NCBI GenBank assembly: GCA_043819795.1
Contig: JBDREN010000083.1
Coordinates: forward strand, 5,298 to 69,297
Length of the DNA stretch: 64,000 nucleotides
Source: Elusimicrobiota bacterium
Lineage (GTDB): Bacteria > Elusimicrobiota > Elusimicrobia > UBA1565
Direction: 5' to 3'
The notes below the pieces were generated by a model. The model made no database searches and was not told the origin of the DNA. It saw only the letters and a program-made list of their open reading frames with translations. Made by a program: the position numbers and the translations under genes. Numbering within the stretch: position 1 is the stretch's first letter; each line of letters starts with the position of its first letter. This document shows positions 24,306-59,397 of this stretch, one piece after another.

Positions 24306-25730
24306 GTGCCGAAGCCGGAACCGACACCGCGGCCGGAGACCCCGCCCATAGCGGGACGGAAGCCTTCAACGCCTGGGCCCCGCGAGCGAGGGCGAGCGGG
24401 ACGGACGCGCCGGCTGCTGGCCTTCGCGTTGCTCGCCGGGGCGTTGGCGCGCTTCGCAACGGCATTCCTCTATTGGGAAGCGCCGCTCAGCCCGGGCGGC
24501 GATGACCTCCAGTACCATGAGCTGGCCTCCGGGATCGCTTCCGGGCGGGGATACCTCCTGCAGGACGAGCCGAGCGCCTACCGCGGCCCTCTCTACCCCC
24601 TCTTTCTGGCGGCGGCCATGCGGGTGACGGCCAGCGACGCGCCCGGCGTCCTCCGGCTCATCCAGGCGATCCTGGGCCTGCTGGCCCTCTGGCTCGTCTA
24701 CCGTCTAGGCGCGGCCATCCATTCCCCCGAGGCGGGCGCCTGGGCGGCGATGCTCATGGCTCTCTATCCGGAGCAAGTCCTGCTCCCGACGTCGCTCTAC
24801 ACCGAATGCTTCTACGCCTTGATCCTGCTCGTCGTGGCGTGGGCGCTCGCATGCTGGCGGCAAGACCCCCGGCCGGCGCGGCTCGCGGGGCTCGGCGCCG
24901 CGATCGGCCTGAGCCTGCTGACGCGTTCGACGCTGGCGGCCTTGCCCGTCCTGCTCGCGGCTTGGCGGCTCGCGGAGCTCCGCGCCGGACGACGGTGGCT
25001 GCGGGAAACCGCCCTTCTCGCCGTGACCGTTCTGCTGCCGCTCACGCCCTGGATCGTCCGCAACTACGCGCGTTTCGGCAGGGTCATCCCCATGGAGACC
25101 GGCGTCGCCGGTCCCGCGTTATGGTACGCCTCCAAGGGCTGGGTCACGGCGCCCTCGGACATGTCCAGCGTGGAGCCGATGAGGACGATGTACCGGAGGC
25201 TTCCGCATACCGAGTGGGACCGCTTCGCGACGCCGCGAGCCCTGCGCAACATGCGGGCCCGCCCGATGGCGTATCTTCTCGGATGCGCGAAGAGGGCTCT
25301 CTACCTTTGGACCACCGCATACACCCCCTACCTGCTCTACTACCACCACCGCCTCTCGGCGTGGATGCAGAGCGGCGGCCGCTGGAGCTGGATCGCCCTG
25401 GGCGACTGGCTCCTTCGGCTCTGCCTGATCCTGCCGGGGGCCTGGGTACTGCTCCGCAGCGCGCGAAAACGCGGCGGAAGCCTTCAGCGCCTGGGCCCCG
25501 CACCGGCCTCCAACGCAAATCCAAAGGGAGGCCGGCACGGCGCCCCTACCGGGGTGGACGCCGCGAGCACGGGCGAGCGGGGGCTTTGGGCGGTGGCCGG
25601 TTTGGTCCTATACTTCCACATCCACGTCTTCGCGACGGTCTTCGTCCGCTACATGGCGCCGGTGACGCCCCTGCTGTGCGTCCTGGCCGGGGCGGGGTGG
25701 GCCGAGTGGCGAGCCTCGCGCCGAGGCTAA
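24306..25730 (+). CDS. GT-C family membrane glycosyltransferase (ArnT/PMT-like, GT83-type); start uncertain (GTG), N- and C-terminal regions each carry a copy of the 45-nt repeat
   Basis: Multiple TM helices, motif LSPGGDDLQYHELASGIASGRGY; repeat copies at 24353-24406 and 25474-25583 in frame. Confidence 0.7.
   Translation: MPKPEPTPRPETPPIAGRKPSTPGPRERGRAGRTRRLLAFALLAGALARFATAFLYWEAPLSPGGDDLQYHELASGIASGRGYLLQDEPSAYRGPLYPLFLAAAMRVTASDAPGVLRLIQAILGLLALWLVYRLGAAIHSPEAGAWAAMLMALYPEQVLLPTSLYTECFYALILLVVAWALACWRQDPRPARLAGLGAAIGLSLLTRSTLAALPVLLAAWRLAELRAGRRWLRETALLAVTVLLPLTPWIVRNYARFGRVIPMETGVAGPALWYASKGWVTAPSDMSSVEPMRTMYRRLPHTEWDRFATPRALRNMRARPMAYLLGCAKRALYLWTTAYTPYLLYYHHRLSAWMQSGGRWSWIALGDWLLRLCLILPGAWVLLRSARKRGGSLQRLGPAPASNANPKGGRHGAPTGVDAASTGERGLWAVAGLVLYFHIHVFATVFVRYMAPVTPLLCVLAGAGWAEWRASRRG
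24353..24406 (+). repeat. 45-nt GC-rich palindromic repeat copy (gggacggaAGCCTTCAACGCCTGGGCCCCGCGAGCGAGGGCGAGCgggacgga), translated as [15 protein letters not shown]
   Basis: Best-conserved exemplar; 8-bp flanking direct repeat GGGACGGA. Confidence 0.65.
25474..25583 (+). repeat. 45-nt repeat copy split by a ~62-nt nested hairpin insertion (CCGGCCTCC..GGAGGCCGG)
   Basis: 5' half ggaagccttcagcgcctgggccccgca and 3' half cgcgagcacgggcgagcggggg separated by insertion. Confidence 0.5.
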
Positions 25731-32600: not shown

Positions 32601-32927
32601 TCGGGCCCGCGGCGTCCCCCCGGGACCGACGCCCTTCGGACCGAAGCGCAGGCTGTGACGCCCCCGGCGGGCGCCGTTGAAGCGCCGTACCGCGGCGCGC
32701 GCCCGCCGAGACCTCCCCACCGCGCGCGTGCGGGGCGGCTCGGGCCGGTCCAGGCCGAAGCGTCCGGCGTCGTCGCGATGATGCGGCTCCGGACGCACGG
32801 CGAACGCGGCGCGGGCGCCGCCCGCCATGAGCAGCGCGGCCAACGCCCCGGAAGTCATCAACACACGGGCCCCGCGAGCCGGGGCTCGCGGGGAGACCGC
32901 CGGAGGCCTGGATACCCGGCGCATCAC
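29637..32927 (-). CDS. secreted zinc metalloprotease (fungalysin/thermolysin-like, HEYVHFV) with C-terminal T9SS-type sorting domain (ends KKVIVVK)
   Basis: HExxH motif VRHEYVHFV; propeptide-like N-terminus; C-terminal ~80 aa matches Por secretion CTD pattern (FNPSRGEFTTIRYEI...GIYLLNLEAPG...KKVIVVK). Alternative start 32858. Confidence 0.75.
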   Translation of the reverse strand: MMRRVSRPPAVSPRAPARGARVLMTSGALAALLMAGGARAAFAVRPEPHHRDDAGRFGLDRPEPPRTRAVGRSRRARAAVRRFNGARRGRHSLRFGPKGVGPGGTPRARVEAREVAVAFLREYGPELGLRADELRLELGRTAGGIHHLLFEQVVEGVPVEFSRVKVHLDEAGAILSLQSSYRPGVRESPVPRLDEAAAALRAAADLGGAAPRPRGGRLVFFPLRGSDAVRLAWRFRVSGRGGGWIYYVDAGSGEILLRYNDLRFQAACASSGTVTGNVYDIDAGTSPLSVRPFKNQRVYVVDSSTFALTDANGFFCSQTAGKIFTSLQGPYVHVANFNVPNAHYDNGGGKWKTFSTPLSSPHPYSNDAVLISTINATPQDAPGAVKLLPVFSSFDVGGIEFFAGDLEITDDDQVAILDADGYPVAGYLGNRGPFNGAAVAGTQLRLRLKSNESGTRNGFDISHSSYLYLTNSPGSSDNATATFTWTTARTFDGTEDEINLFYHINRMHDYFADGPNSADGADIDKPVPVMARAGPGLSNAFYDPLHENLMFGDVGNSLALDASVVRHEYVHFVVDQIYPIINFGQFGAISEALADYFAASSLGNSAIGTYANVGFQSEGALRELDCPSETACVIFPAHWTGAIHDDSRMISQAVWGLRGQLMTQLGAANGQACADGLVFQALFFFPDSFEDFLEAMLEVDKRAAALVAACGGDNLRGGDIVNAFALHNIVLNPPDEDVYEPNNGIQSATDITTAPVISARIYPAADLDYYAFGAAEGLIRLTLTLPQDPGFPGTYRAYSMSLIDSRYEIVRKAGPVIDINPTLGGYCPDTGCRTSSRKVVLEYVSPRSDQYFLVVSAPEGDEYALVTNNNSTEFYGLEAEYSRAGPVASSIVAASFDNDVISFEVRVATFVTSQNYMFHHARLRDHALRVLPGTATDGASPFLTFVSSSNGLGRVSGTLALASGFNERFRAVGTVHLEVFGGNPLGHVQSLGFSPAINLTADRTALTPFNNVFNPSRGEFTTIRYEIQSAGHVRLRLFTRTGRHVLTLIDEFKPAGKGSVDWSGANRLGSRVASGIYLLNLEAPGIRETKKVIVVK

Positions 32928-36386: not shown

Positions 36387-37415
36387 ATGAGCGAAGCCGG
36401 GGATTCCATCACCACCAACGAAGCGCTCAAGGAAGATGAGCGCTTCGACCGGGCTTTGCGCCCGAAGACCCTGGACGAGTTCATCGGCCAGGAAAAGCTT
36501 AAGGACAACCTCCGGGTATTCATCGAGGCCGCGCGAAACCGCCGGGAACCCCTGGATCATTCCCTCTTTTACTCCCCGCCGGGCCTGGGCAAGACGACGC
36601 TCGCCTCGATCCTGGCCCGCGAGATGGGCGTCAACCTGCGCACGACCTCGGGCCCCATCCTCGAGCGCGTCGGCGACCTGGCGGCCATCCTGACGGACCT
36701 GAGCGAGGGCGACGTCCTGTTCATCGACGAGATCCACCGGCTGAGCAGGCTCGTCGAGGAAGCGCTCTATCCGGTGATGGAGGACTCCACCTTCTACATC
36801 TCGACAGGCAAGGGGCCGATGGCGGCGACCGTCAAGCTGGCGATCCCGGGGTTCACCCTCGTGGGCGCCACGACGCGCGCCGGACTCCTGACGGGGCCGC
36901 TCCGCAACCGCTTCGGCATCGTCGGGCACCTGGGATTCTACGACGAGGCGGACCTCCGCCGGATCGTCAAGCGCTCGGCCGGTCTCCTCGGGGTAGAGAC
37001 GAAGCCGGCCGGCGCGGCGGAGATCGCGCGACGCAGCCGCGGCACGCCCCGTATAGCCAACCGCCTCTTGCGCCGGGTGCGGGATTTCGCCGAGGTCAAG
37101 GCCGACGGGACCATCACCGAATCCGTCGCCAAGGGAGCGCTCGAGGCGCTCGAGGTCGACGGGCTCGGGCTAGACCACATGGACCGGAAGTTCCTGCGCG
37201 CCCTCATCGAGAAGTTCTCGGGCGGGCCGGTCGGCATCGACACCCTGGCTATGGCCGTGTCGGAGGAGGTGGACACGATCACCGAGGTCCTCGAGCCCTA
37301 CCTGATCCAGGCGGGCCTTCTCCAGCATACCCCCCGCGGGCGCATGGCGACCCGCTTGGGCTTCGAGCACATGGGCGTCAAGCCCCCTCCCAAGCGCGGC
37401 GAGCTTTTCCCATGA
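36387..37415 (+). CDS. ruvB: Holliday junction DNA helicase RuvB
   Basis: Walker [12 protein letters not shown]; alternative TTG start 36381 overlapping ruvA stop. Confidence 0.9.
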
Positions 37416-38773
37416 GCCGCGGCGTCCTGCTCGCGGCGTCGTGCGCCTTGGCCGCCGTGGCCGCCGCGGCGCCCCTATCGGGGAGCCGCCCGGAGGGCCC
37501 GCCGGCACGCTCACGCGCTTTTGTGGCAAGCGCGGTACTGCACACTCCGGCGCCGGAAACACCCTCGGCACCGGCCGGTCCCGGCGTCGTTCCGGGGCCG
37601 GGTCCTGTGCCGGGCTCGCCGCCGCGCGCGGCCGCGGCGGAGTCCCTCACCCCCGCGAGCCCGTCGGAACCGATCATCGCGGTGGGCATCGCCCACAGGG
37701 TCCCGAAGATCACGGTGCGTCCGGAGGGCCGATTCTCGGTCATAGACGAGACGACCGGCGAGATGAAGCGGCTCGAGCGCGGACGCGCCTACACGGTCGA
37801 AGCCGACGAGGGAGAGCGCCTCATCCTGGGGCCCTTCCTCTTCTTCGGCCCGACGCGGCTCCTGCCCGGCCGGCCCGAGGAGTATGTCCTGATCGGGGAG
37901 CGCAAGTACCGCGGGAATCTGGTTTTCCGCCCGAATAAAGACGAGACGATCACCGTCATCGATGAGTTGGGCCTCGAAGAATACCTCTACGGGGTCCTGC
38001 CGACGGAGATGAGTCCCGAATGGCCGCTCGAGGCTCTCAAGGCCCAGGCCGTCGTCGCGCGCACCTTCGCGCTCAACAACCTCGGCAAGTACTCTTCCTC
38101 GGGCTACGACCTGACCGACGACTCCCGCAGCCAGATCTACACCGGGATCACGATCGAATCCGTCCGGGTCCGGCGAGCGGTGAAGGAGACGGCCGGCCAA
38201 GTGATCTATTGGCGCGGGAAACGCCTCCCGGTCCACTTTCATTCCTGCTGCGGAGGCCGCACGACCGATCCGGCCTCGGTCTGGGGCCCGTTGCGGACCG
38301 CCGACGCCGGAGAGCGGGGCGCGGCCGAGAGCCCGCGCCCCCTGCGCGGCGTGCGCGATCGCTACTGCCAGGACACGCCGCACTACGGCTGGACGGCGTA
38401 CTTCAGGAAAGACGACATGCTCCGGGCGCTCCAGCGCGGCGGCCACAACGTGGCCACCCTCACGGCGATCAAGCCCGGGCGCCGGACCTCTTCGGGCTAC
38501 CTCCGGTACCTCCGCCTCAAGCTCGACGGCGCCTGGAGACGCGTGGCGGCCAACGACCTGAGGATGTGGCTCGGCCCCGCCGAGCTAAAGAGCACGCGGA
38601 TACGACGGGTGACCCGCCGGCGCAAGGGCTTCGAGTTCGCCGGGCGCGGCTACGGGCACGGCGTCGGCCTGTGCCAGTGGGGAGCCCGCGTCCAGGCCGA
38701 GCGAGGCGGCGGATACCGCGATATCCTGGGATTCTATTTCCCCGGAGCGGAAATCGGCCCGCGGGAGCGCTAG
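37412..38773 (+). CDS. SpoIID/LytB-domain protein (amidase enhancer-like)
   Basis: Signal peptide, proline-rich linker, SpoIID motifs [39 protein letters not shown]. Confidence 0.75.
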
Positions 38774-38774
38774 C

Positions 38775-38825
38775 CACGGAAACCTTCAACGAGCGGACCC
38801 CGCGAGCGAAGGCCGGCGAGACGGA
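38775..38825 (+). repeat. 45-nt GC palindromic repeat, divergent copy 1 of tandem pair in spoIID-queA spacer
   Basis: cacggaaaccttcaacgagcggaccccgcgagcgaaggccggcgagacgga. Confidence 0.5.
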
Positions 38826-38829
38826 GGCC

Positions 38830-38888
38830 GGGACGGAAGCCTTCAACGCCTGGGTCCCGCGAGCAAGGGCCAGCGAAGCGCGGTCCCG
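38830..38888 (+). repeat. 45-nt GC palindromic repeat, copy 2 of tandem pair
   Basis: gggacggaagccttcaacgcctgggtcccgcgagcaagggccagcgaagcg. Confidence 0.6.
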
Positions 38889-38890
38889 GT

Positions 38891-39960
38891 ATGGGGAATC
38901 CGTTCCCGGGGCGAGCGGTTTTCGCCTCGAAGACTACGAATTCGCCTATCCCCGATCACTCATCGCCACGGCTCCCGCGACCCCGCGCGACGCGGCGCGC
39001 ATGCTGGTGCTCGACCGGACGACGGGCCGGATCGAGCATCGCCGCTTCCTCGACCTGCCCCAATACCTGCGGCCCGGGGACTGCCTCGTCCTCAATCGCA
39101 GCAAGGTCCTCCCCGCCCGCCTGGTAGGGCGCAAACCGACCGGCGGCAAGGTCGAGCTCAACCTCGTCCGCCGGCTCGCGCCGGACCGCTGGACCGCGCT
39201 CTCGGCGAACCTCAAGCCCGGCGTCGAGGTGCTCTTCCCCGGCGGGATCCGCGCCTCCGTCGAGAGCCTCGACCCCGAAGGCGAGTGGATACTCAGGTTC
39301 TCGGTCGGGGAGGTGGAGCTCCTCATGCTCCGCCACGGTCACGCGCCGCTTCCCCCCTATATCCAGAAGCGGCGCAAGCGGCTGCCGCCGGCCGCGGTCG
39401 AGGACCGGGACCGCTACCAGACCGTCTATGCCCGCGAGGAAGGCTCGGTCGCGGCGCCGACGGCCGGCCTGCACTTCACTCCCGAGCTGCTCGAAGCGCT
39501 GCGGCGGCAGGGCGTGCGCGTCGCGGAGGTGGTGCTCCATGTGGGCCGCGGCACGTTCCGGCCGGTCACCGCCCGCGACATCCGGGCTCATCGCATGCTG
39601 CCCGAGAGGTTCTACATCCCGGACGGGACGGCCGCCGCGCTCCGAGAGGCCCGCCGCGACGGAGGCCGCGTCATCGCGGTCGGAACGAGCAGCGTCCGCA
39701 CCCTGGAGACGATAGCCCGCCGCGGAGGCGGGGCCAACGGGGCGCACTCCCCCATCGAGGAGACCGAGCTCTTCATCCTGCCCGGCCACCGCTTCCTTTC
39801 CGTCGACGCCTTGATCACCAACTTCCATCAGCCGGCCTCCACGCCCCTTCTGCTGACATCCTCCTTCGCCGGACGCGAGCGTCTGCTCGAAGCCTACCAC
39901 GCGGCCATCGCCCGGGAGTACCGCCTCTTCTCCTACGGCGACTCGATGCTCATCGTTTGA
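38891..39960 (+). CDS. queA: S-adenosylmethionine:tRNA ribosyltransferase-isomerase QueA; N-terminus unresolved (conserved frame has no in-frame start after spoIID stop; ATG 38891 is in the -1 frame, possible 1-nt indel in G-run 38905-38912)
   Basis: GFRLEDYEFAYPRSLIA..LVLNRSKVLPARL..GRKPTGGKVE aligns with E. coli QueA from residue ~4. Confidence 0.75.
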
Positions 39961-44692: not shown

Positions 44693-44697
44693 CGTTG

Positions 44698-45330
44698 GAC
44701 GTCCTGCGCGCCGCGGCCCCCTATCTCGCCTACGGCTTCGCCACGATAGTCGGGGGGACCTCCAGGATCCGCTGGGAAGGCGCCGAACACCTGCGCGCCG
44801 TCAAGAAGGGGGGCAAGGGCTTCATTTACGCCTTCTGGCACCAGCGGCAGATACTGTTCACCTACACCCACCGGAGCCAAGGCGCCCACGTGATGGTCAG
44901 CCGCAGCCGCGACGGAGAGATCATCGCCCGGACCATGCGCCTTTCGGGGATCGGAGCCGTCCGCGGCTCTTCGTCCCGGGGAGCGTCCGCGGCCACGCGG
45001 GAGATGCTGGATCTGCTCGCCCGCGGCCGGCCCATCGGGATCACTCCCGACGGGCCCCGCGGGCCCGCGCGCACCGTCAAGACGGGCGTGTTGTACCTCG
45101 CGCTCAAATCCGGCTGCCCCATCCTCCCGATCACCAATGCCGTGAGCCGCCGCATCGTATTCCGCAAGGCATGGGACGATTGCCATCTGCCTCTCCCGTT
45201 AAGCACGGCATGCGTGGCGCACGGCGCCCCCATGAGGGTCCGAGCCGGCGACGATATCCAAAGGAAGGCAGCCGAGCTCAAGGAAACCCTCGACCGGATC
45301 ACCGCGGAAGCGGACCGGCTCGTCTCGTGA
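44698..45330 (+). CDS. DUF374-type lysophospholipid-acyltransferase-like protein (commonly paired with Kdo transferase); TTG start inferred
   Basis: AFWHQRQILFTYTH...VMVSRSRDGEIIAR...ITPDGPRGP. Confidence 0.55.
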   Translation, partial: DVLRAAAPYLAYGFATIVGGTSRIRWEGAEHLRAVKKGGKGFIYAFWHQRQILFTYTHRSQGAHVMVSRSRDGEIIARTMRLSGIGAVRGSSSRGASAATREMLDLLARGRPIGITPDGPRGPARTVKTGVLYLALKSGCPILPITNAVSRRIVFRKAWDDCHLPLPLSTACVAHGAPMRVRAGDDIQRKAAELKETLDRITAEADRLVS

Positions 45331-45337
45331 ACGGACC

Positions 45338-46642
45338 ATGAGCCTGCTGCTCTACCAGATCGTATTCCCGCTGATCGGGCTCATGATCCTCGCGAGGATG
45401 CTGCTGGCGGGCAGAGGCGGCGCCATCAGGGAAGGGGCTCCGGACATCCGCCAGCGCCTCGGCCTGCTCTCGCCCGAGGAGCGGGCCCGCCTGGGCGACG
45501 GCCCCGTCGCGTGGTTCCACGCCGCCTCCGTCGGAGAGGTCCGGGCCGCGGCCCCCCTCCTGCGGATGCTCGCCGCGGCCGCGGACCGTCCCCGCATACT
45601 CGTGACGACGTCGACCGTCTCCGGGCGCGAGCACGCCCGGAAGCTCCCGGAGGTGGACCTCGCGGTCCTGGCGCCGATGGACTTTTTCCCCGCGGTGTCC
45701 GCCTTCCTGCGCCGCGCGCGGCCGCGCTCGCTCGTCCTCATCGAGACGGAGCTCTGGCCGATGACGCTGTGGGCCGCGCGCCGTCGCGGCATCCGCCTCG
45801 GCATCGCCAACGGACGCATCACGGAGCGGGCGTTCTCCCGCTACCGATGGATACGGGGCATCATGGCCCGCCTGCTCTCCGGTTTCGAGCGCGCCGCCGT
45901 GCAGACCGGCGCGGACGCCGAGCGCTACAAGGCCCTGGGATTGCCGCCGGCGGCGACGAAGCGGACCGGAAACTTGAAATACGACCAGCAGCTTCCCTCC
46001 GAAGAGGCCGTCGCCAAAGCCCGAGAGCGGCTCGCGGGCCTCGGCTGGGCCGAGGACCCGTGCTGGGTCGCCGGCAGCACGCGCCGCGGCGAGGAGGCCA
46101 TCGTGCTCGAGGCGCACAAGAAGGCCGTTCGCGAGATCCCCCGCCTGCGCCTCATCCTCGCCCCGCGGCATCCCGAACGCAGCCAGGAGGTCGAGAGCCT
46201 GCTGCGCGCCGGAGGCCTGCGCTGCGTGCGTTGGTCGCAGCTGCTCCCCTTCCAGGCGGACCCGGAATGCATCCTCATCGACGCCCTGGGCGTCCTCGGA
46301 TCCCTGTATCCGGTGGGGCGGGCGGCCTTCGTCGGCGGCACGCTGGTCCCGGTGGGCGGCCACAACCTGCTCGAGCCGGCCCTCGCGGGCGTCCCGGTCC
46401 TCTTCGGGCCCCACACCGCGTCCGTCCGAAAGGTCGCCCAGGAACTGGAGCGGTCCGGCGGCGGCCGGGTGGCCCAAGACGCCGCGGGGCTCGCGACGGC
46501 CCTCACGGACCTGCTCTTGAACGAGTCGGACCGCCGCGTCGCGGGAACGCGGGCCCGGCGGGCGGCCATGCGCTTCAGCGGGGCCACGGAGCGGACTTTC
46601 GAGCACCTCCGTCCCCTCCTCCTGCCGGAGAAAATGGTATAA
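45338..46642 (+). CDS. waaA: 3-deoxy-D-manno-octulosonic acid (Kdo) transferase
   Basis: WFHAASVGE motif, GT30 C-terminal domain. Confidence 0.85.
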   Translation: MSLLLYQIVFPLIGLMILARMLLAGRGGAIREGAPDIRQRLGLLSPEERARLGDGPVAWFHAASVGEVRAAAPLLRMLAAAADRPRILVTTSTVSGREHARKLPEVDLAVLAPMDFFPAVSAFLRRARPRSLVLIETELWPMTLWAARRRGIRLGIANGRITERAFSRYRWIRGIMARLLSGFERAAVQTGADAERYKALGLPPAATKRTGNLKYDQQLPSEEAVAKARERLAGLGWAEDPCWVAGSTRRGEEAIVLEAHKKAVREIPRLRLILAPRHPERSQEVESLLRAGGLRCVRWSQLLPFQADPECILIDALGVLGSLYPVGRAAFVGGTLVPVGGHNLLEPALAGVPVLFGPHTASVRKVAQELERSGGGRVAQDAAGLATALTDLLLNESDRRVAGTRARRAAMRFSGATERTFEHLRPLLLPEKMV

Positions 46643-46709
46643 TTCATCAGGTTTCTCCGTACGCGCGCCCGTACGCGAGCGTAGCGGCGGGGAATCTCGG
46701 CAGAAATCG

Positions 46710-48356
46710 ATGGCACGCCGCATCCTGGTCCTGCGTCTTTCCTCGCTGGGAGACGTGGTCCTTACCGCTCCGGTATACAAGAACCTCAAGGCGCACTGGC
46801 CGGAGGCACGCGTCTGCGTCCTCGTCAAGCCGCAGTTCGCTCCCGTCCTCGAGAACAACCCCTGCATCGACGAGGTTCTTCCGTATCGCGGCCTGCTGAA
46901 GACCCTGCGCGAGATCCGCCGCCGGGGATTCACCCATCTGCTCGACCTGCACGCCACGTGGCGCACTTTCTGGATCCGCCATCTGAGCGGCATCGCGAAC
47001 GTCTCGGTCTACCGCAAGAACGCGCTGGCCCGACGGCTCTACGTCCTTTTCCGCCGCTCCTCTCCCGTCCTCTTCAAGCACTCGCTCGACCGCTACCTCG
47101 AGAGCCTCGCGGCGTGGGGCGTCCCCGTCCGCCACCGCGACCTGGCCCTCGGCGATTACGGGAGCGTCCATGCGGGCAACGGAGCGCGCCCGAAGCCCGA
47201 CGCACAGCCCGAGACGCCCGGGGAAACGACTGAACGGCAAGAAAGAACACCCCCAGAAACAGAAACACGGACCCCCCGATCCCTCGCGCCCCCCCGCGGG
47301 GGGGGCGCGTATCGTGTCCTCATCGTGCAGACTTCGTTCCTCGGCGACGCCCTGTTGACGCTGCCCTTGGCGCGCCGCGTGGCCGAGATCATCGGCGGGT
47401 GCCGCATCAGCGTCCTGACCCGGCCCGAGACGGTCTCCGTCTTCCAGCGATCCCCCTGGATCGACGAGGTCATCGAAGACGACAAGCGCGGCGCCAGCGC
47501 GAGCGCGGCCGGACTGCTGAGGCTTGCGAGAGACCTGCGCGGGCGCGGGTTCGATCTGGCCCTCGTCGCCCACCGGAGCTTCCGCAGCGCGCTCCTGGCG
47601 TGGCTCGCCGGCATCCCCCACCGCATCGGCTTCACCTCCAGCGCGGGCTCGTTCCTTTTTCACCAGAAGGTGTTCTTCCCCTGGGGCATGCCGGATCTGG
47701 AGCGCAACCTCGCGCTGCTCCTTCCGCTCAAACCGGACCTGCGCGCCGACCGAGAGGATTCCCTCTACCTCGCCTCCGCGAAAAACTCTCGGGCCATCGC
47801 CGCCCGTCTGGCCGAGAGCGGCATCGGCCCCGGAGACCGGCTCGTCGGCATCCACCCCGGCTCGGTATGGCCGACGAAACGGTGGCTGCCCGAGCGCTAC
47901 GCTCTCCTCGTCAATCGTCTGGTCAGGGAGGCCGGCGTCCGCGTCGTCATCGTGGGGGGCCCCGGAGACCGTGAGCTCGCCGGGCGCATCGCCCGAGCGG
48001 CGGACGTCGCGGCCCTCGACTGGACCGGAAAGACGACGCTGCCCGAGCTGCTCGAGCTGGCCGGACGCCTGAGCCTGCTCGTGACCAACGACTCCGGTCC
48101 GATGCATATCACGGCCGCCCACGGCGTTGCGACCCTCGCGATCTTCGGACCGACGACCCGCGAGCTCGGGTTCTTCCCGTACGGGGAAGGGCACCGCGTC
48201 CTGGAGGCCGACCTCGCGTGCCGCCCCTGCGGCCTGCACGGCAGCCGCGCCTGCCCCGAGGGGCATTTCCTCTGCATGGGCCTGATCAGCGTGGACGAAG
48301 CCTATCGCAACGCCGTCGAGCTCCTCGAAGGCGTCGCGGCGAAAGAACCGGCATGA
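46710..48356 (+). CDS. GT9 heptosyltransferase-like protein with duplicated N-terminal domain (aa 1-170 = extra N-domain; 190-548 = complete GT9), joined by T/E/P-rich linker
   Basis: RILVLRLSSLGDVVLTAPVYK and RVLIVQTSFLGDALLTLPLAR both match GT9 N-domain start; single C-domain GPTTRELGFFP. Confidence 0.75.
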   Translation: MARRILVLRLSSLGDVVLTAPVYKNLKAHWPEARVCVLVKPQFAPVLENNPCIDEVLPYRGLLKTLREIRRRGFTHLLDLHATWRTFWIRHLSGIANVSVYRKNALARRLYVLFRRSSPVLFKHSLDRYLESLAAWGVPVRHRDLALGDYGSVHAGNGARPKPDAQPETPGETTERQERTPPETETRTPRSLAPPRGGGAYRVLIVQTSFLGDALLTLPLARRVAEIIGGCRISVLTRPETVSVFQRSPWIDEVIEDDKRGASASAAGLLRLARDLRGRGFDLALVAHRSFRSALLAWLAGIPHRIGFTSSAGSFLFHQKVFFPWGMPDLERNLALLLPLKPDLRADREDSLYLASAKNSRAIAARLAESGIGPGDRLVGIHPGSVWPTKRWLPERYALLVNRLVREAGVRVVIVGGPGDRELAGRIARAADVAALDWTGKTTLPELLELAGRLSLLVTNDSGPMHITAAHGVATLAIFGPTTRELGFFPYGEGHRVLEADLACRPCGLHGSRACPEGHFLCMGLISVDEAYRNAVELLEGVAAKEPA

Positions 48357-49495
48357 GGATCCTGCACATCATCGACGAACCCTACGATAGCGGGATCGTG
48401 CAGTACGCGCTCAAGGCCGCCGAGGGCCTGATGCGGCGGGGCCACGCCTGCCGCGTCTGGGGCCTGAAGGGATGCTATCCGCTTCTGGAAGCGCGGCGTC
48501 GCGGCATAGGGGCCGACGGCTACTCGCACCCCTGGCTGAACCTGGCGGTCCTGCGCCGGTCGCTCCGCATCCAGGGGCTGGACCTCGTCGTCGCGCATAC
48601 GGGCTCCGCCCACACGCTGGCCGTCGCGGCGGCCGCCTGGCACCGGGGCCCCGGGACGCGCCGGAGCTCCGCCGCCTCGTCCTCGGCGAGCGGACCGGTC
48701 CCGGCGGACGGAGGCGGAGGCTACCTCCCCGTCGTACGCACGCGCGGTGACGCCCGGCCGCAGAGCAGGCGTCCCGGTGGGCGCCTGCTCTGGAGCCGGA
48801 CATCCGGGTTCGTGGCGGCCAACCGCCGCATCCTCGATGAGCACTCCCGGCTCTACGGACGCCCGGACCTGCACGCGGCCGTCGTGTACGAGGGGCGCGA
48901 GGATCCCGGCCCGCCACGCCCGCCGGCGCGGGGCGCGCCGACCGTCGGCATCGTGGCCCGGCTCGACCCCGTCAAGGGCCACCGCTGCTTTCTCGAGGCG
49001 GCAGCCCGCGTCCTCAGGGAGTGCCCCGACGCGCGGTTCCTCGTCGTCGGGCGCCAGGAGAACGTGCGCGCGGCGGACCTGCTCGGCCACGCCCGGCGCC
49101 TCGGGCTCGCGGACCGCCTGGACCTGACCGGACACGTCCCCGACGCGCTCGAATTCATGCGGCGCTGCCACGTGGGGGTCGTGGCCTCGACCGGCTCCGA
49201 AGCCGTCTCTCGCTCCGCCGTCGAGTGGATGGCGGTGGGGAGGCCGCTGGTCGCGACGAAGGTCGGCTGCCTTCCCGAATACGTGATCGAAGGCGAGACC
49301 GGCTTTCTCGTGCCGCCGGGGGACGCGCCGGCGCTGGCGCGCGCGACCGGCCGTCTGGTGCGCGACGCGTTCCTGCGCGAGCGCATGGGACAGGCCGGGC
49401 GCCGGCGCTACGAGTCCCGCTTCACGCTGGAGCGATTCCTGGATGAGACGGAGCGCCTCTATGGCGAAACGATTCACGCTGTTCCATCTCGATAG
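48353..49495 (+). CDS. glycosyltransferase family 4 (with low-complexity insertion in N-domain)
   Basis: ATGA overlap with upstream stop; C-terminal E..G.PLVATKVGCLPEYV GT4 motif. Confidence 0.75.
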   Translation: MRILHIIDEPYDSGIVQYALKAAEGLMRRGHACRVWGLKGCYPLLEARRRGIGADGYSHPWLNLAVLRRSLRIQGLDLVVAHTGSAHTLAVAAAAWHRGPGTRRSSAASSSASGPVPADGGGGYLPVVRTRGDARPQSRRPGGRLLWSRTSGFVAANRRILDEHSRLYGRPDLHAAVVYEGREDPGPPRPPARGAPTVGIVARLDPVKGHRCFLEAAARVLRECPDARFLVVGRQENVRAADLLGHARRLGLADRLDLTGHVPDALEFMRRCHVGVVASTGSEAVSRSAVEWMAVGRPLVATKVGCLPEYVIEGETGFLVPPGDAPALARATGRLVRDAFLRERMGQAGRRRYESRFTLERFLDETERLYGETIHAVPSR

Positions 49496-50609
49496 CGAAC
49501 GCGGCTTCCGCGGCGGCGAGCGCCAGCTCCTGTATCTGGCCGCTCATCTGCGCGCCCGGGGTCACGAGAACGTCGTGGTCTGCCGGGGACGCGAGGCCCT
49601 CGAGGCCGAGGCCCGCCGCCAGCGCTTCCGAACGATGCGCCTACCCTTCCTCGGCGAATGGGACCCGGTCTCCGCGTGGCGGCTCCGGAGGGCGTCCCGG
49701 TCGGCGCGGCACGCCCCCGTGCTCCACGCCCACACCGCTCACGCCGCCGCCCTCGCCTACCTGGCGTCGCGCTTCGGAGGTCCCCCGTGGGTGGCGCACC
49801 GCCGCGTCGACTTCCACCTCAACGGCTCGCTCAGCCGCCGTCTCAAATACGACACCGCGCCCCGCGTGATCGCCGTCTCCGAGAGCATCCGCCGCATCCT
49901 GGTCGCCGACGGAATGGAGGGCTCGCGCATCACGGTCGTCCCGGACTGCATTCCTCTCACTGACGATGAGGCGCGCCTCGCGGGTCTCGACGCCGGTCCG
50001 ATGCGCCGGGCCACCCGCTCGGAAACCGCCGCCATACGCCGTCCCCTCGCCGAGAACCTGGGCCTTCCCGAGACCGGGCCCTGGATCGGCAACCTGGCGG
50101 CCCACGTTCCGCACAAGGACCAGGCGACCCTGATACGAAGCCTGCCTTCTGTGCTGAAGGCGCTGCCGAAAGCGCGCCTGCTGCTCGTGGGCGACGGCCC
50201 TCTCCGGACGGAGCTCGAGGCGCTGGCTCGGTCGCTGGGCGTCGAATCGGCCGTCCGCTTCGCCGGCCACCAGAGCGATCCGGCGCCGTGGCTGAGCTGC
50301 CTCGACGTCTACGTCCAGTCGTCCTGGGGAGAGGGGATGGGATCGGTGCTTCTCGAGGCGATGGCCTGCGGCGTCCCGATCGTCGCGACGACGGCGGGAG
50401 GGATACCCGAGGTGATCGAGCACGGGCGCAGCGGGCTCCTCGTGCCCCCGCGCGATCCGGAGCGAATGGCGGGTGCGATCGTCGACTCCTTGCTCGATCC
50501 CGAAAGCGCCCGGCGCAGGGCGGACGCGGCGGCCGAGGATCTGAAGTCTTTCGGCCTCAGCCGCGTCGGTGACCGCATGATCGCGCTCTATCGCGAGGTG
50601 ACGGAGTGA
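49461..50609 (+). CDS. glycosyltransferase family 4
   Basis: GEGMGSVLLEAMACGVPIVATTAGGIPEVI. Confidence 0.75.
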   Translation: MAKRFTLFHLDSERGFRGGERQLLYLAAHLRARGHENVVVCRGREALEAEARRQRFRTMRLPFLGEWDPVSAWRLRRASRSARHAPVLHAHTAHAAALAYLASRFGGPPWVAHRRVDFHLNGSLSRRLKYDTAPRVIAVSESIRRILVADGMEGSRITVVPDCIPLTDDEARLAGLDAGPMRRATRSETAAIRRPLAENLGLPETGPWIGNLAAHVPHKDQATLIRSLPSVLKALPKARLLLVGDGPLRTELEALARSLGVESAVRFAGHQSDPAPWLSCLDVYVQSSWGEGMGSVLLEAMACGVPIVATTAGGIPEVIEHGRSGLLVPPRDPERMAGAIVDSLLDPESARRRADAAAEDLKSFGLSRVGDRMIALYREVTE

Positions 50610-50719
50610 CCGAGCATAGCGCGGTTTCGGCTGCGTGCCTCAGCCATTCCCTCGCGTTTGGCCGCAAACGCTTCGGTCACAGGAATGGTCGCGTCGATCG
50701 CCGCGGGAGGCGACCATGA
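50606..50719 (+). repeat. 114-nt long form of SD/start-bearing intergenic repeat: mini-ORF GTG..TGA (37 codons) whose GTG overlaps upstream GT4 stop (GTGA) and whose TGA overlaps downstream GT2 ATG (ATGA)
   Basis: Near-identical to 59231-59344; internal hairpins GCGTTTG-gccg-CAAACGC and ATGGTCGC..GCGACCAT; GGGAGG 6 nt before ATG 50716. Confidence 0.7.
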
Positions 50720-51519
50720 AGCCGAAGCTGAGCGTCATCGTCATCGCCCGCGACGAGGAGCGAGACCTGCCGGCCTGCCTCGAGAGCGTGCGGGGCCTCG
50801 ACGCCGAGATCATCGTCCTGGACAGCGGCTCGACCGACCGCACGCGCGAGATCGCCCGCCGGTTCACGCCCCATGTCTTCCAGCAGCCCTTCCGGGACTT
50901 CGGCTCCCAGAAACAGTCGGCCTTGGAACGCGCCTCGGGCGAATGGGTCCTCTCTATCGACGCCGACGAACGCCTGAGCGGCGAGCTGCGCCTGGAGATC
51001 GCCCGCCTGATCGAGTCCCCCCCGGGCGGCGTCTCCGGCTACGACATCCCTTTCGAGGTCCACTTCATGGGCCGCCGCCTCCGGTTCGGCGGCCTGGGCC
51101 GGGAGCGGCACCTGCGCCTGTTCCGGCGCGGGGCCGGGGTCTTCACCGGAAACCACCTTCACGAGGGCGTCTCCGTCACGGGGGCGACGGCGCGCGCGGG
51201 CGCGCCGATCCGGCACATCCCCTACCGGGACCTCGACGACTATCTGGGGAAGCTGCGCGTCTACACGACCCGGGCCGCCCGCAAGAGATTCGACCAGGGG
51301 CGGAGGTTCCACCCGCTCCACCACCTGCTGCCGCTTTGGGAGTTCTTCCTGCGCGTCGTGGTGAGGCTCGGGATGCTGGACGGGACCCCCGGCCTGCTTT
51401 GGGCGGGGCTCTCTTCGTTCCATACGTGGATCAAATACGTGAAGCTGCGCGAGATCGCGGAGGAGCCCGGAAGCCTTCCACGCCTGGGTCCCGCGAGCAA
51501 GGGCGAGAGGAAGCGGTGA
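50716..51519 (+). CDS. glycosyltransferase family 2; C-terminal 15 aa encoded by a copy of the 45-nt repeat (51468-51514)
   Basis: SVIVIARDEERDLPACLESV...DADE; C-terminus PGSLPRLGPASKGERKR. Confidence 0.8.
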   Translation: MKPKLSVIVIARDEERDLPACLESVRGLDAEIIVLDSGSTDRTREIARRFTPHVFQQPFRDFGSQKQSALERASGEWVLSIDADERLSGELRLEIARLIESPPGGVSGYDIPFEVHFMGRRLRFGGLGRERHLRLFRRGAGVFTGNHLHEGVSVTGATARAGAPIRHIPYRDLDDYLGKLRVYTTRAARKRFDQGRRFHPLHHLLPLWEFFLRVVVRLGMLDGTPGLLWAGLSSFHTWIKYVKLREIAEEPGSLPRLGPASKGERKR

Positions 51520-52334
51520 CCGGCCTTTATCTGGTGGCCGGCGGCATCGGAGCCATCTCGGCGGCGGCGGTCTCGGCCCGCTGGAACTGGTGGCGGCCGC
51601 GCGCGCACGGCCTTCCGGTGCTGATGTACCATAGGATCGGAGACCCCCCCGCGGGCAGCCGGCTGAAGAAGCTCTGGGTCCGCCTCGCGGATTTCCGCTG
51701 GCAGATGGAGCACCTGCTTCGCGACGGCTACACGCCGCTGCTCTTCTCCGAGCTGGAGGCCCTGGAGGCCGGGAAGAGCCCGAAGCCGCCCCGGCCGGTC
51801 ATCATCACCTTCGACGACGGCACGGCCGACAACTACGAGCTCGCCTTTCCGGCGCTGCGGGAGCTCGACGTCAAGGCGAACATCTTCCTGGTCTGCGACG
51901 CGGTCGGCGGACACAACTCCTGGGAGGACCCGGCCGTGGGCCCTTGGCAGCGGATGCTGAGCTGGGGACGGGTCCTGGAGATGCAGGAGTCGGGACTCGT
52001 CGAGTTCGGCTCCCATACCATGAGCCACCGCGACCTGGCGCGGCTGCCTGTGGAGGAAGCCCGCTGGGAGGTCCGTGAATCGAAAAAGCGGCTGGAGGAC
52101 CGGCTCGGCCGGCCGGTGACGGCGTTCGCTTATCCCTACGGCTCCGGCGCCCGCGTCCCGGAGCTGCGCGCCGCGGTCCGCGAGGCCGGCTATCGCTACG
52201 ACTACGGGATCCGGCAGGGGATATCCCCATGGCCCGACGGCCGGGATGAGGCCGCCAAACGCCTGCTGATCCGCGGCGACGATCTCCGGATCGACTTCCG
52301 CCTCAACCTGACCCGCGGGAGGGCACGCCTCTGA
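51516..52334 (+). CDS. polysaccharide deacetylase (NodB-homology) family protein with N-terminal TM; GTG start overlapping GT2 stop (GTGA)
   Basis: VIITFDDGTADNYELAFPAL, SHTMSHRDL, FAYPYG motifs. Confidence 0.75.
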   Translation: MTGLYLVAGGIGAISAAAVSARWNWWRPRAHGLPVLMYHRIGDPPAGSRLKKLWVRLADFRWQMEHLLRDGYTPLLFSELEALEAGKSPKPPRPVIITFDDGTADNYELAFPALRELDVKANIFLVCDAVGGHNSWEDPAVGPWQRMLSWGRVLEMQESGLVEFGSHTMSHRDLARLPVEEARWEVRESKKRLEDRLGRPVTAFAYPYGSGARVPELRAAVREAGYRYDYGIRQGISPWPDGRDEAAKRLLIRGDDLRIDFRLNLTRGRARL

Positions 52335-53413
52335 TGCATCCTCCCCGCAGGATACTCGTCATCATGCTTCGCCGCATCGGCGACGTGATCCTCACGACCC
52401 CCGCGGTCCGCGCCCTGCGCCGGCTTTATCCCGACGCCGTCATCGACTTCCTCGTCGAGCCCCCCGCGCACGAGCTGCTGGCCGGCGATCCGGACATCTC
52501 GAACGTCCTCGTCTACGGAGGCGCGGATCTTCCGTTAAGGAGAGGGCTTCCTCGCACGCTGCGTGCGCTTTGGGATTACGTATACTGGCCGTGGCGCGTA
52601 TTCCGCTCGCGATACGACTGGGTCATCGATTTCATGGGCAATCCCCGCACCGCGGTGCTGACGTTCCTGAGCCGGGCCGGGGTCCGGGCCGGGCCGGGGC
52701 GCGTCTCGCACCGATGGGCGTACACTCATCGGCTCCGGCAGCCCTCCGAAGCGTGCTACGGCGCCCTCGAGAAGATCCGCATGCTGCGCTCGCTCGGGCT
52801 CGACCCGGACGAGTCGGACGCCCTTCCGCGCCTGAGCCCGGACCCGAGTTCCGAGGAGTTCGCGCGCGCCACGCTCAACCGCCTGCCGGAACCCGCGGGG
52901 CCGCTGATCGGCGTCGTCCCCGCCTCCCGCCGCGTCACCCGCCGGTGGCCGGCCGAATCCTTCGCGCGGCTCGGCCGGATGCTGCGCGACCGGCACGGGG
53001 CGAGCCTGCTGGTATTCTGGGGGCCCGGCGAGCGGGAGCTCGCGCGCAGGGTCCGCGACGGGATCGGCGAGGGGGCGCACCTTTCCCCGGAGACGAAGAG
53101 CCTGCGGGAGCTCGCCGCGCTCGTCGGACGTTGCCGGTTGGTGGTGACGAACTGCAACGGCCCCAAGCACATCGCGGTCGGCCGCGGCGTGCCCACGCTC
53201 ACGATCCACGGATCCAGCGACCCCGTGTCCTGGACGCCCATGGGCGATGTCCGCCATCGCGCGTCCCGGCTCGACCTGCTCCACTGCATCGGCTGCAGGC
53301 GCAACCGCTGCCCGTATTCGCTTGAATGCATGACGGAGCTGACGGCCGAGCAGGTCTGCACGACCGCCGAGAATCTCCTGAGATTGACCGGCAACGGAAG
53401 GCTGCCCGGATGA
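52334..53413 (+). CDS. glycosyltransferase family 9 (heptosyltransferase-like)
   Basis: RILVIMLRRIGDVILTTPAVRAL; NCNGPKHIAVGRGVPTLTIHG. Confidence 0.8.
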   Translation: MHPPRRILVIMLRRIGDVILTTPAVRALRRLYPDAVIDFLVEPPAHELLAGDPDISNVLVYGGADLPLRRGLPRTLRALWDYVYWPWRVFRSRYDWVIDFMGNPRTAVLTFLSRAGVRAGPGRVSHRWAYTHRLRQPSEACYGALEKIRMLRSLGLDPDESDALPRLSPDPSSEEFARATLNRLPEPAGPLIGVVPASRRVTRRWPAESFARLGRMLRDRHGASLLVFWGPGERELARRVRDGIGEGAHLSPETKSLRELAALVGRCRLVVTNCNGPKHIAVGRGVPTLTIHGSSDPVSWTPMGDVRHRASRLDLLHCIGCRRNRCPYSLECMTELTAEQVCTTAENLLRLTGNGRLPG

Positions 53414-54558
53414 GGCCCGAGGCGCTCCGCAATCGGATCCAGGCCCACGCCGCGGGAAGGCTATTGCTCGGCGCGCTCGCGCTCCTCTACGGCGCGGCGG
53501 TCCTGCTGCGCAACATCCTGTACTGGCTCCGCCTGCTTCCGAGCAGGAAGCTGCCGGTCAGGACGGTCTGCGTCGGCAACCTGACGACCGGCGGGACCGG
53601 GAAGACGAGCGCCGTGCTCCTGGCGGCGCAGACGCTGCACAAGAAACAGGTGAGTACGGCCATCCTCAGCCGGGGCTACGGCCGCCGGCGCAAGGCGCGC
53701 GACGTCCAGGTCCTGCTCAACACGCAAAGCGCGCGCTGGGAGGAGACCGGGGACGAGCCCTGGATGATGCACCGCGCCCTGAAGGGCACCGCCATCCCGA
53801 TCCTCATCTCGTCGGACCGCTGTCGCGCCGGCGACACGGCCCTGACCTACTACAAGCCGCAGGTGCTCCTGCTCGACGACGGCTTCCAGCACCGCAAGCT
53901 GCGGCGGGACCTCGACATCGTCCTCATCAACGCCATCAACCCCTTCGGGGGAGGCAAGCTGCTGCCGGCCGGGAACCTGCGCGAACCCCTGCGCGCCCTG
54001 CGGCGCGCCGGGCTGGCCGTCATCACCCACGCGGATCAGGTCCCGTCGCGGCGTCTCGCCGAGATCCGCGAGACGATCAATGGGTACAATCCCAAGCTCC
54101 CGGTGCTCGAGGCGATCCACCGCGCCGACTTCCTTCTCGACCTGAAGCGCGACCGCAGACGGCGGCTCTCCCACATCAAGAAGAAGGCGGTGGCCTGTTT
54201 CTCCGGGATCGGGGACCCCCGCCCCTTCGAGGAACAGCTGCGCCGTATCGGGTCCCGCCTGATCCAGACATGGCGCTATCCCGACCACCACCCGTACACC
54301 CTCGACGAGCTTCGCTCGATCGAGAGCCTCCGCCGCGGGCTCCCGGTCCTCACCACGTTCAAGGACTTCCCCCGGCTGCCGCCCGGCTGGCAGGAGATCC
54401 TGCGCGGAGAGGTCCTGGCGCTGGGCATACGCATGGAGATCACGAAGGGGCGGCCCTTGTGGGAGGAGGCCCTCTGGCCCCCCCCCGCGAGCGCGAAGCG
54501 CCCGCAAGATCACAAGCCCGCTAGCGAAAAAGGCCGGGAAAAGGATAAGACATCATGA
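53410..54558 (+). CDS. lpxK: tetraacyldisaccharide 4'-kinase
   Basis: VGNLTTGGTGKT P-loop; ATGA overlap. Confidence 0.85.
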   Translation: MRPEALRNRIQAHAAGRLLLGALALLYGAAVLLRNILYWLRLLPSRKLPVRTVCVGNLTTGGTGKTSAVLLAAQTLHKKQVSTAILSRGYGRRRKARDVQVLLNTQSARWEETGDEPWMMHRALKGTAIPILISSDRCRAGDTALTYYKPQVLLLDDGFQHRKLRRDLDIVLINAINPFGGGKLLPAGNLREPLRALRRAGLAVITHADQVPSRRLAEIRETINGYNPKLPVLEAIHRADFLLDLKRDRRRRLSHIKKKAVACFSGIGDPRPFEEQLRRIGSRLIQTWRYPDHHPYTLDELRSIESLRRGLPVLTTFKDFPRLPPGWQEILRGEVLALGIRMEITKGRPLWEEALWPPPASAKRPQDHKPASEKGREKDKTS

Positions 54559-55169
54559 GACCCAGATCACCCCGAAAGCCGTCCCCCCGTACCGGGGCCG
54601 CGCCCCGCTCGCCCGTGGTATTCCTGGACCGCGACGGCACAATCATCCACGACCGGCCGGGGTTCTACCTCAAGCGGCCGGAGCAGTTGCGCCTCTACGC
54701 CAGCACCCCGCCGGCGCTGCGACTGCTTCGCGACGCCGGTTACCGCCTCGTCGTGCTCTCCAATCAGAGCGGCATCGGCCGCGGCTTCCTCGACCACGCG
54801 ACGCTGGCGCGCATCCATCGCCGGTTGCTGAGCGCGTTGCGCCGCCGCGGAGCGGACCTCGACGCGATCTACTTCTGCCCGCACCATCCCGCCGACGGGT
54901 GCCGCTGCCGCAAGCCCTCGCCGGTGCTGGCCCGACGGGCCCTCCGGGAGAACCACATCACGCTCAGGGGTTCCGTCGTCGTCGGCGACAAGAAGGCGGA
55001 CATCGACCTGGCGCGCGCGATCGGCATCCCGTCGGTGCTGCTCAAGACCGGCCACGGCCGGGAGCAGCGCGCCATGTTCGGGCGAAGACTGAGGCCGACC
55101 CACGTGGCGCGCGACATCCTAGGCGCCGCTCGATGGATATTGAAGTCCGTGCCGAGGCCCCCGCGGTGA
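54555..55169 (+). CDS. gmhB: D-glycero-D-manno-heptose 1,7-bisphosphate phosphatase
   Basis: FLDRDGTI, HAD motifs, zinc site CRCRKP; ATGA overlap. Confidence 0.85.
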   Translation: MRPRSPRKPSPRTGAAPRSPVVFLDRDGTIIHDRPGFYLKRPEQLRLYASTPPALRLLRDAGYRLVVLSNQSGIGRGFLDHATLARIHRRLLSALRRRGADLDAIYFCPHHPADGCRCRKPSPVLARRALRENHITLRGSVVVGDKKADIDLARAIGIPSVLLKTGHGREQRAMFGRRLRPTHVARDILGAARWILKSVPRPPR

Positions 55170-55197
55170 CGCCCCGCATTCGAACGGTCCGCCCGCG

Positions 55198-58094: not shown

Positions 58095-58127
58095 TGATTC
58101 CTATTTGATATAATTTTGCTGGAAAAC

Positions 58128-59234: not shown

Positions 59235-59397
59235 CCGAGCATAGCGTGGTTTCGGCTGCGTGCCTCAACCATTCCCTCGCGTTTGGCCGCAAACGCTTCG
59301 GTCACAGCAATGGTCGCGTCGATCGCCGTGGGAGGCGACCATGACCGAGCATAGCGCAGGAAATGGTCGCGTCGATCGCCGTGGGAGGCGACCATGA
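59231..59397 (+). repeat. long (114 nt) + short (57 nt) tandem units of SD/start-bearing repeat between hldA and kdsB; GTGA overlap with hldA stop, ATGA between units, ATGA into kdsB
   Basis: Direct comparison with 50606-50719 (4 substitutions) and 12222-12335. Confidence 0.7.

Follow-up and report, generated by a model that had tools for sequence, protein, structure and literature searches.

The closest described counterparts of the repeat reported here appear to be the Rickettsia palindromic elements (RPEs), which measure ~100–150 bp, and other in-frame intragenic MITEs (PMC10969869). Our repeat comes from an uncultured Elusimicrobiota genome, of which we analysed one stretch of 64 kb with 68.4% GC (hereafter the window, from whose first letter all positions are counted), and it occupies the 5' border of queA, a gene of the + strand cluster yebC-ruvC-ruvA-ruvB-spoIID-queA-tgt-yajC-secD-secF. 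The features around this border are the following, L001, L002 and L003 being the loci of three of the nearest QueA homologues (60–67% identity):

37412–38773, + strand: spoIID, given as the longest open reading frame (the true start may be further downstream), with a Pfam SpoIID match and a C-terminus that ends as in relatives
38891–38893, + strand: ATG, putative ancestral queA start, matching the queA starts of L001–L003 once 38776–38889 is deleted
38914–39960, + strand: frame that codes for the conserved QueA (SGFRLEDYEF... to the stop codon), intact by its PF02547 match and codon score
39968–41131, + strand: tgt, the next gene of the cluster, intact (Pfam TGT profile positions 2–355 of 357; synteny with L001–L003)

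The QueA frame is in phase with position 38893 and open back to 38020, inside spoIID; the conserved protein in this frame begins SGFRLEDYEFAYPRSLIA..., and position 1 of the Pfam Queuosine_synth profile falls on Leu 38926. A start-codon scan finds no ATG, GTG or TTG in it from the spoIID stop (TAG 38771–38773) to ATG 39001, the first canonical in-frame start, whose use would cost 25 conserved codons. The near-cognate codons CTG, ATT, ATC and ATA are also absent from the spoIID stop to ATC 38962, and hence from the vicinity of the QueA N-terminus at 38890–38926. The original prediction had described a frame that runs back into spoIID and offers no start before the conserved N-terminus, and the sequence directly confirms it. 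The prediction was also right to place ATG 38891 outside the QueA frame, for this codon lies one base off the QueA frame, shares the register of spoIID, and opens a junk ORF of 78 codons. A stretch of 51 codons without a start is not unusual by itself at 68% GC (estimated chance ~15%). The real anomaly is that a fully conserved gene is startless at a site where all of 119 relatives have a start: an in-frame start 0–20 codons before the conserved (D/E)(F/Y)x(F/Y) N-terminus is missing from the window queA, and 115 of the 119 relatives have 0–19 residues there.

Could QueA simply be shorter than its relatives, or begin at an unusual codon? Translation might start at ATG 39001 or at GTG 39007, or reinitiate at some non-canonical codon; ACG 38776, for example, lies in the QueA frame 2 nt past the spoIID TAG. 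A start at 39001, however, would drop the conserved DYEFAYPRSLIA... block, which every relative possesses, and ATG 39001 is preceded by no Shine-Dalgarno (SD) sequence; ACG, for its part, is a very weak bacterial initiator. We find this reading scarcely credible.

The body of the gene shows no decay. It matches PF02547 (S-adenosylmethionine:tRNA ribosyltransferase-isomerase) over the full length of the profile (1–322 of 322) at 395.7 bits, and of the 57 columns without variation among the 119 relatives it retains 56; the single deviation, a singleton L to N change, is normal by the standard of the relatives themselves. Codon usage is normal (+0.45 bit per codon, GC3 0.90). No promoter or terminator was found in a scan of 38500–39100, and the Rfam 15 covariance models, run at a permissive threshold over 38500–39200, gave chance matches only (E 1.5–6.7, far under the gathering scores), with no preQ1 or other riboswitch among them.

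Relatives show where the start belongs. The nearest other QueA proteins are 66–67% identical to ours and the 100 best relatives 53–67% in a protein search; exact-match searches with Tgt and the NCBI QueA revealed no second assembly of the same species in the collections searched, and the NCBI clusters are single-member. The ruvCAB-spoIID-queA-tgt-yajC-secDF cluster is conserved, and L001, L002 and L003 share the order ruvC-ruvA-ruvB-spoIID-queA-tgt. In all four loci the SpoIID end is homologous, with five residues after YFPGAx[I/V/L]. We directly observe queA starts at +3 nt from the spoIID stop in L001, −13 nt in L002 and −4 nt in L003 (an overlap as ATGA), with SD sequences (GGGAGGAG in L001, GAGGAG in L003) 5–8 nt before the queA start, within the 3' end of spoIID. 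Taking the 114 nt at 38776–38889 out of the window yields GGGAGcgcTAGcctATG, that is, GGGAG-N9-ATG with a 3-nt spacer after the spoIID stop, which is the layout of the relatives. The element that would have served as ribosome-binding site is:

38763–38767, + strand: GGGAG, probable ancestral queA SD, a role assigned from sequence

Since the relatives' starts lie near the spoIID stop and deletion of 38776–38889 recreates their layout, we infer that ATG 38891 was the ancestral queA start. The comparison with relatives proposed along with the original prediction, carried out on the three loci and the 119 homologues, likewise puts the start at the position of ATG 38891. The distance from GGGAG to this codon is now 123 nt instead of 9, and what intervenes is a pair of repeats:

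38776–38832, + strand: repeat copy 1, more diverged, hairpin arm degenerate (nhmmer E=2.9e-11)
38833–38889, + strand: repeat copy 2, near the family consensus in its 5' two-thirds, 3' arm degenerate (nhmmer E=1.8e-16)

The copies measure 57 nt (19 codons) each and align without gaps at 74% identity in a repeat search; Tandem Repeats Finder leaves this 57-nt pair unreported. Tandem copies had been predicted at 38775–38888, and two copies do exist, at 38776–38889, but they are not a mere local duplication. Both begin with the 16-mer ACGGAARCCTTCAACG, which has nine matches in the window at up to three mismatches against 0.98 expected, and an nhmmer profile built from the copies recovers a family of 11 members in the 64 kb at E<1e-4, with positions 15899, 17604, 24351, 25469, 32844, 38773, 38829, 51465 and 58943 on the + strand and 56539 and 61773 on the − strand. 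The pair consists of two unequally diverged copies of a dispersed element, inserted in the former 3-nt spacer between spoIID and queA.

The family has a palindromic core. In the family alignment, the conserved part extends over ~55 nt (CGGGaCGGAAGCCTTCAACGCCTGGGyCCCGCGAGCrrGGGCGAGCGGGrc), and its 3' half forms an imperfect hairpin of 8 bp, a tandem G·A, 2 bp and a tetraloop, into which the canonical copies fold. Pairing holds in 75.5% of cells, compared with 28–43% for slid partners. A single double change (C-G to U-A) occurs, and covariation is not above that of shuffles. Both copies upstream of queA fold without the family hairpin, and the RNA fold of the pair is no better than that of shuffles. 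Conservation stops ~55 nt in, and the flanking inverted repeats are specific to individual copies, such as GATCTTGCC/GGCAAGATC around 58943; the family alignment defines neither terminal inverted repeats nor target duplications. Two patterns of the repeat gave no matches in GTDB species representatives, one pattern gave none in JGI metagenomes, and Rfam does not contain the element. A hairpin-only pattern hit two JGI contigs (L004 and L005), which share just the CTCTCCCCGCGAGCGGGGGCGAGCGGGGAGAG hairpin, without the 5' module, and were not counted as members. The members other than the queA-upstream pair are:

15899–15954, + strand: copy in the ORF 15216–20408, in frame f0
17604–17666, + strand: copy inside the same 1730-aa ORF, in frame f2 (DGSLPRLGPGSGGERDG)
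24351–24415, + strand: copy that best matches the consensus, in the spacer upstream of a PMT_2 glycosyltransferase gene
25469–25531, + strand: further copy
32844–32892, + strand: further copy
51465–51526, + strand: copy at a gene junction, comprising the last codons and TGA of a GT2 gene as well as GAGAGGAAG and GTG 51516 of the next gene
56539–56598, − strand: further copy
58943–58995, + strand: copy in frame in an HldA-like (PfkB) heptose-7-phosphate kinase gene, whose PfkB match is split in two
61773–61835, − strand: reversed copy, located between genes for CTP synthase and a kdsA-like protein

At least five of the 11 copies, about half, lie inside ORFs and leave them unbroken, being read as either an f0 (xEAFNxxAPRARASG) or an f2 (GSLxRLGPASxGER) peptide. 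The copy in the HldA-like gene shows that the family is tolerated within coding sequence: exactly at 58943–58995 the kinase has 34 residues (266–299) where PDB 4e84 has 3. At the junction 51465–51526 the element contributes to the expression signals of its neighbour, GAGAGGAAG within the copy being the SD of the downstream gene. The gene at 59394–60164 was considered as an 'empty-site' paralogue of the GT2 gene (50716–51519) at this junction and rejected, the two proteins being unrelated; the DNA shared upstream of these two genes is a second repeat family.

Repeat sequence may also have reached the gene itself, at the following site:

38908–38918, + strand: GGGGCGAGCGG, the same sequence as the family's 3' hairpin arm, a possible repeat remnant in the first queA codons

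This 11-mer occurs four times in the window against 0.56 expected, three times within repeat copies and the fourth time here, over a G-run. An nhmmer search found no third, partial copy over the queA 5' end, and in a local-alignment scan 0.7% of random 38-nt segments match the repeat consensus as well as the queA 5' segment does. These observations are suggestive of a remodelling of the first queA codons by repeat sequence, and we offer them as a lead only.

Public annotation solves the missing start by going further upstream, to:

38677–38679, + strand: GTG, start of the 427-aa NCBI QueA (MFH1724151.1, protein P0001 of our set), which the protein search identified as the window's own gene, on a 72-kb contig of an Elusimicrobiota MAG; overlaps spoIID by 97 nt

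If this model were correct, QueA would carry an 80-aa extension spanning both repeats in f0 (TETFNERTPRAKAGETEAG / TEAFNAWVPRARASEARSR). GTG 38677 is the only canonical in-frame start upstream, and several properties of the repeats speak for it and against any missing base: the QueA frame across them is the stop-free f0 frame, the one in which the copies at 15899 and 58943 are translated within their ORFs, it is mildly coding-like (+0.21 bit per codon, GC3 0.84), and the 57-nt period is divisible by three. A frame and a length of this kind are what translation of an N-terminal extension would require. Other observations, however, speak against the model. The first 32 codons (38677–38772) score −0.90 bit per codon in the QueA frame, as off-frame sequence does, versus +0.37 in the overlapping spoIID frame, which encodes the conserved SpoIID C-terminus. 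The model would place 83 residues before Pfam position 1, versus 0–48 (median 6) before the position aligned with Leu 38926 in the 119 relatives. No SD precedes GTG 38677, a 97-nt overlap with spoIID is unusual, and L001–L003 start queA at the spoIID stop rather than at the equivalent of this codon. Read-through translation across the repeat copies, one of the options raised in the original prediction, is left without a usable start by these objections to its sole candidate. We hold this reading to be decidedly unlikely, and the 427-aa MFH1724151.1 is almost certainly an annotation rescue with a wrong N-terminus.

A single extra base is sufficient to restore a conventional gene. Inserted anywhere in 38893–38922, it links ATG 38891 to the QueA frame, and three runs of four identical bases are the obvious sites:

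38893–38896, + strand: G-run, candidate indel site 1; an extra G gives MGESVPGASGFRLEDY
38905–38911, + strand: C_CCG_GGG, holding the G-run 38908–38911, candidate indel site 2 and the one originally predicted; an extra G gives MGNPFPGASGFRLEDY
38919–38922, + strand: T-run, candidate indel site 3; an extra T gives MGNPFPGRAVFRLEDY

The repair proposed earlier, one G added to a cccgggg run, does restore the QueA start: with a further G, the GGGG at 38908–38911 gives MGNPFPGASGFRLEDYEF (the run itself ends at 38911 and not at 38912). It is not the sole solution, though, as the runs at 38893–38896 and 38919–38922 serve equally well. The product of site 1, MGESVPGASGFRLEDY, looks closest to the MGRVVPESARLEAY of one homologue (P0004), the GTC/GTT and CCG/CCC differences being synonymous; the N-terminal tail is too variable for choosing among the three. 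Repaired and read from ATG 38891, QueA would have 12 residues before the Pfam start, and 11–12 residues are found there in 12 of the 119 relatives.

The second of these sites invites a different explanation, in which the sequence is correct as it stands and ribosomes that initiate at ATG 38891 slip by −1 at C_CCG_GGG, by programmed or 'savior' frameshifting, to produce MGNPFPG-ASGFRLEDY.... The heptamer conforms to X_XXY_YYZ in the frame of ATG 38891 and is formally valid as a slippery sequence exactly where a −1 shift would rescue queA, which counts against the indel; the slipped product would be a QueA of normal length, and an 8-bp hairpin begins 5 nt downstream. The motif is of a poor kind, however: a systematic survey, whose data come from E. 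coli only, found C_CC.G_GG.C and C_CC.G_GG.U to shift poorly and does not list C_CC.G_GG.G as efficient (Sharma et al. 2014; PMC4066793). Downstream of the heptamer, the fold does not surpass that of shuffles (z=+1.12), and by our estimate such a heptamer occurs by chance in ~7% of GC-rich intervals of 30 nt. Nor is the two-frame arrangement conserved, as L001–L003 and the 119 homologues, the nearest of them 66–67% identical, start in frame. We know of no citable precedent for a −1 shift at codons 6–7. Slippage at this site appears very improbable to us, and it is unlikely altogether that a correct deposited sequence still yields QueA, whether by slippage at C_CCG_GGG or from GTG 38677 through translated repeats.

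The explanation that we consider likely combines the original start at ATG 38891, an insertion of repeats and a deposited sequence that is one base short, with no special decoding. In the ancestor, ATG 38891 would have stood ~3 nt past the spoIID stop and used the SD-like GGGAG within the 3' end of spoIID, and queA was probably translationally coupled to spoIID, as in relatives. Two repeats of ~55 nt with palindromic cores would then have entered the spacer (38776–38889) and put another 114 nt between the ATG and its SD. Independently of this, one base appears to be missing from the deposited sequence within 38893–38922, most simply at a 4-base run, with the outcome that ATG 38891 reads a junk frame and the intact QueA frame is left startless. 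The discrepancy of one base between ATG 38891 and QueA, which the original prediction had ascribed to an assembly indel or an authentic frameshift, remains the best reading and agrees with the relatives, and either source is possible.

On the one hand, the shortened sequence might be a genuine frameshift allele that arose very recently in the population sampled and would leave queA non-functional or poorly expressed. On the other hand, it might be an indel of the consensus or assembly. The window sequence is not generally indel-ridden, as can be judged from the full-length Pfam coverage of ~35 other genes, none of them split, and from the intragenic repeat copies, all of which keep the frames of their host genes; queA presents the sole frame problem among ~55 genes. 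One such problem in ~55 genes fits the indel rate expected of a short-read metagenome consensus, and it fits genuine recent frameshift alleles equally well. Our judgement is divided roughly evenly between the two sources, with a slight lean to the genuine frameshift: loss of queA is slightly the more attractive because the break adjoins a mobile repeat that would already have removed the SD and the coupling to spoIID.

The finding is real and most likely ordinary, a one-base discrepancy at the queA 5' end that an implausible public start has hidden, and no new mode of initiation. Its practical value is one of annotation hygiene, and the queA of MFH1724151.1 merits a frameshift flag. The lasting result concerns the supposed tandem repeat, which turns out to be part of a dense family of short palindromic elements in an Elusimicrobiota genome, absent from the other collections scanned, whose members enter gene junctions and, in frame, conserved enzymes, a behaviour best known from the RPEs of Rickettsia. 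If the frameshift is real, the locus would show an insertion uncoupling a gene from its ribosome-binding site ahead of gene loss. If, instead, the DNA is correct and QueA is made, an RPE-like element that coding sequences tolerate would have remade the 5' end and translation start of a housekeeping gene for tRNA modification.

How does the locus compare with known systems of decoding and of repeats? It resembles the programmed −1 sites of dnaX and of the IS3/IS911 family in having an X_XXY_YYZ heptamer in the upstream frame and the product in the −1 frame, and differs from them in that the motif class is weak, unconserved and without a significant stimulator, and lies at codons 6–7. Closer are the startless or frameshifted genes of draft genomes and MAGs, where an intact ORF likewise lies one base off its native ATG at short homopolymers, and here too automatic annotation extended the ORF to the next upstream GTG. 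The difference is that the break in queA falls within the first 10 codons, 2–30 nt downstream of a mobile-repeat insertion that would already have parted the start from its SD. As for the repeat, its size class, imperfect GC-rich hairpin, high copy density and sites at gene junctions recall REP/BIME elements, whereas REPs are defined as extragenic and about half of the copies here are intragenic. From MITEs it differs by the lack of definable terminal inverted repeats or target duplications, and from RPEs by a core of only ~55 nt (~93 nt are inserted in hldA), its GC-richness, its Elusimicrobiota host, the absence of sequence similarity and the restriction to this genome among those searched in the GTDB representatives and JGI metagenomes. 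In its behaviour, nevertheless, the family appears closest to the RPEs and other in-frame MITEs: it is a short dispersed repeat with a palindromic core, free of stops in the frames used, which is found in intergenic DNA as well as, in frame, within unrelated housekeeping genes, where it adds a recurring peptide.

The lipopolysaccharide-core genes of the window form a long plus-strand run at 44695-62689:

44695-62689, plus strand: Kdo transferase, three GT9 heptosyltransferases, LpxK and an HldA-like kinase
44695-62689, plus strand, further members: HAD phosphatase, a KdsA-like DAHP_synth_1 gene and GT2/GT4 genes

The majority of copies of both dispersed repeat families, the first being a ~55-nt element with a palindromic core, lie within this block. 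One copy of the first family coincides with a ~31-aa in-frame insertion (window 58911-59012) in the HldA-like heptose-7-phosphate kinase (gene 58116-59234), recognized by alignment with the solved structure PDB 4e84. The insertion divides the PfkB domain into two halves and is flanked on both sides by a 9-bp inverted repeat, GATCTTGCC/GGCAAGATC. Another copy (51465-51526) covers a gene junction: it supplies the TGA stop and the C-terminal ~17 residues of a GT2 glycosyltransferase. It also contains GAGAGGAAG and GTG 51516, where a polysaccharide deacetylase gene is predicted to begin, the two genes overlapping at GTGA.

The second dispersed repeat, AATGGTCGCGTCGATCGCCGYGGGAGGCGACCATGA, occurs in four copies against zero expected in the window:

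12275-12310, minus strand: second repeat copy
50684-50719: second repeat copy
59309-59344 and 59362-59397: second repeat copies

Its stem is formed by the 7-bp inverted repeat TGGTCGC/GCGACCA and its loop holds GGGAGG; the stem is followed directly by an ATG. Three unrelated genes are predicted to start at this ATG: a giant ORF on the minus strand, the GT2 gene at 50716 and a gene at 59394. In two copies the identity extends to a further 30 nt upstream (50653-50682 and 59278-59307). The element has the appearance of a portable RBS/start cassette or of a translational operator that the genes share.

Start assignment is also at issue in spoIID and queA, between which two copies of the first family are located. 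The longest spoIID ORF (37412-38773) encodes 453 aa versus 379-385 aa in relatives; its predicted start is uncertain, and the Pro/Ala-rich N-terminal ~70 residues may be untranslated, because a codon-score gene model favours GTG 37607. In the public annotation QueA has 427 aa (MFH1724151.1, window 38677-39960), with an 80-aa N-terminal extension and a 97-nt overlap with spoIID; the extension is very probably artefactual, a start codon having been imposed on a frameshifted gene. Residue 83 of QueA (counted from Ser 38914; window ~39160-39162) is Asn, whereas Leu is present in 119/119 homologues (KVELNLV versus KVELLLV). At no other invariant column does the protein deviate, and singleton deviations of this kind are also found in 13 relatives.

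Outside the window, CTCTCCCCGCGAGCGGGGGCGAGCGGGGAGAG, a hairpin core identical to that of the first repeat and lacking its 5' module, is present in two unrelated soil metagenome contigs, L004 (465-488, minus strand) and L005 (300-323, plus strand). The GCGAGC-GGGG-GCGAGC hairpin may be a REP-type core that recurs among GC-rich bacteria.
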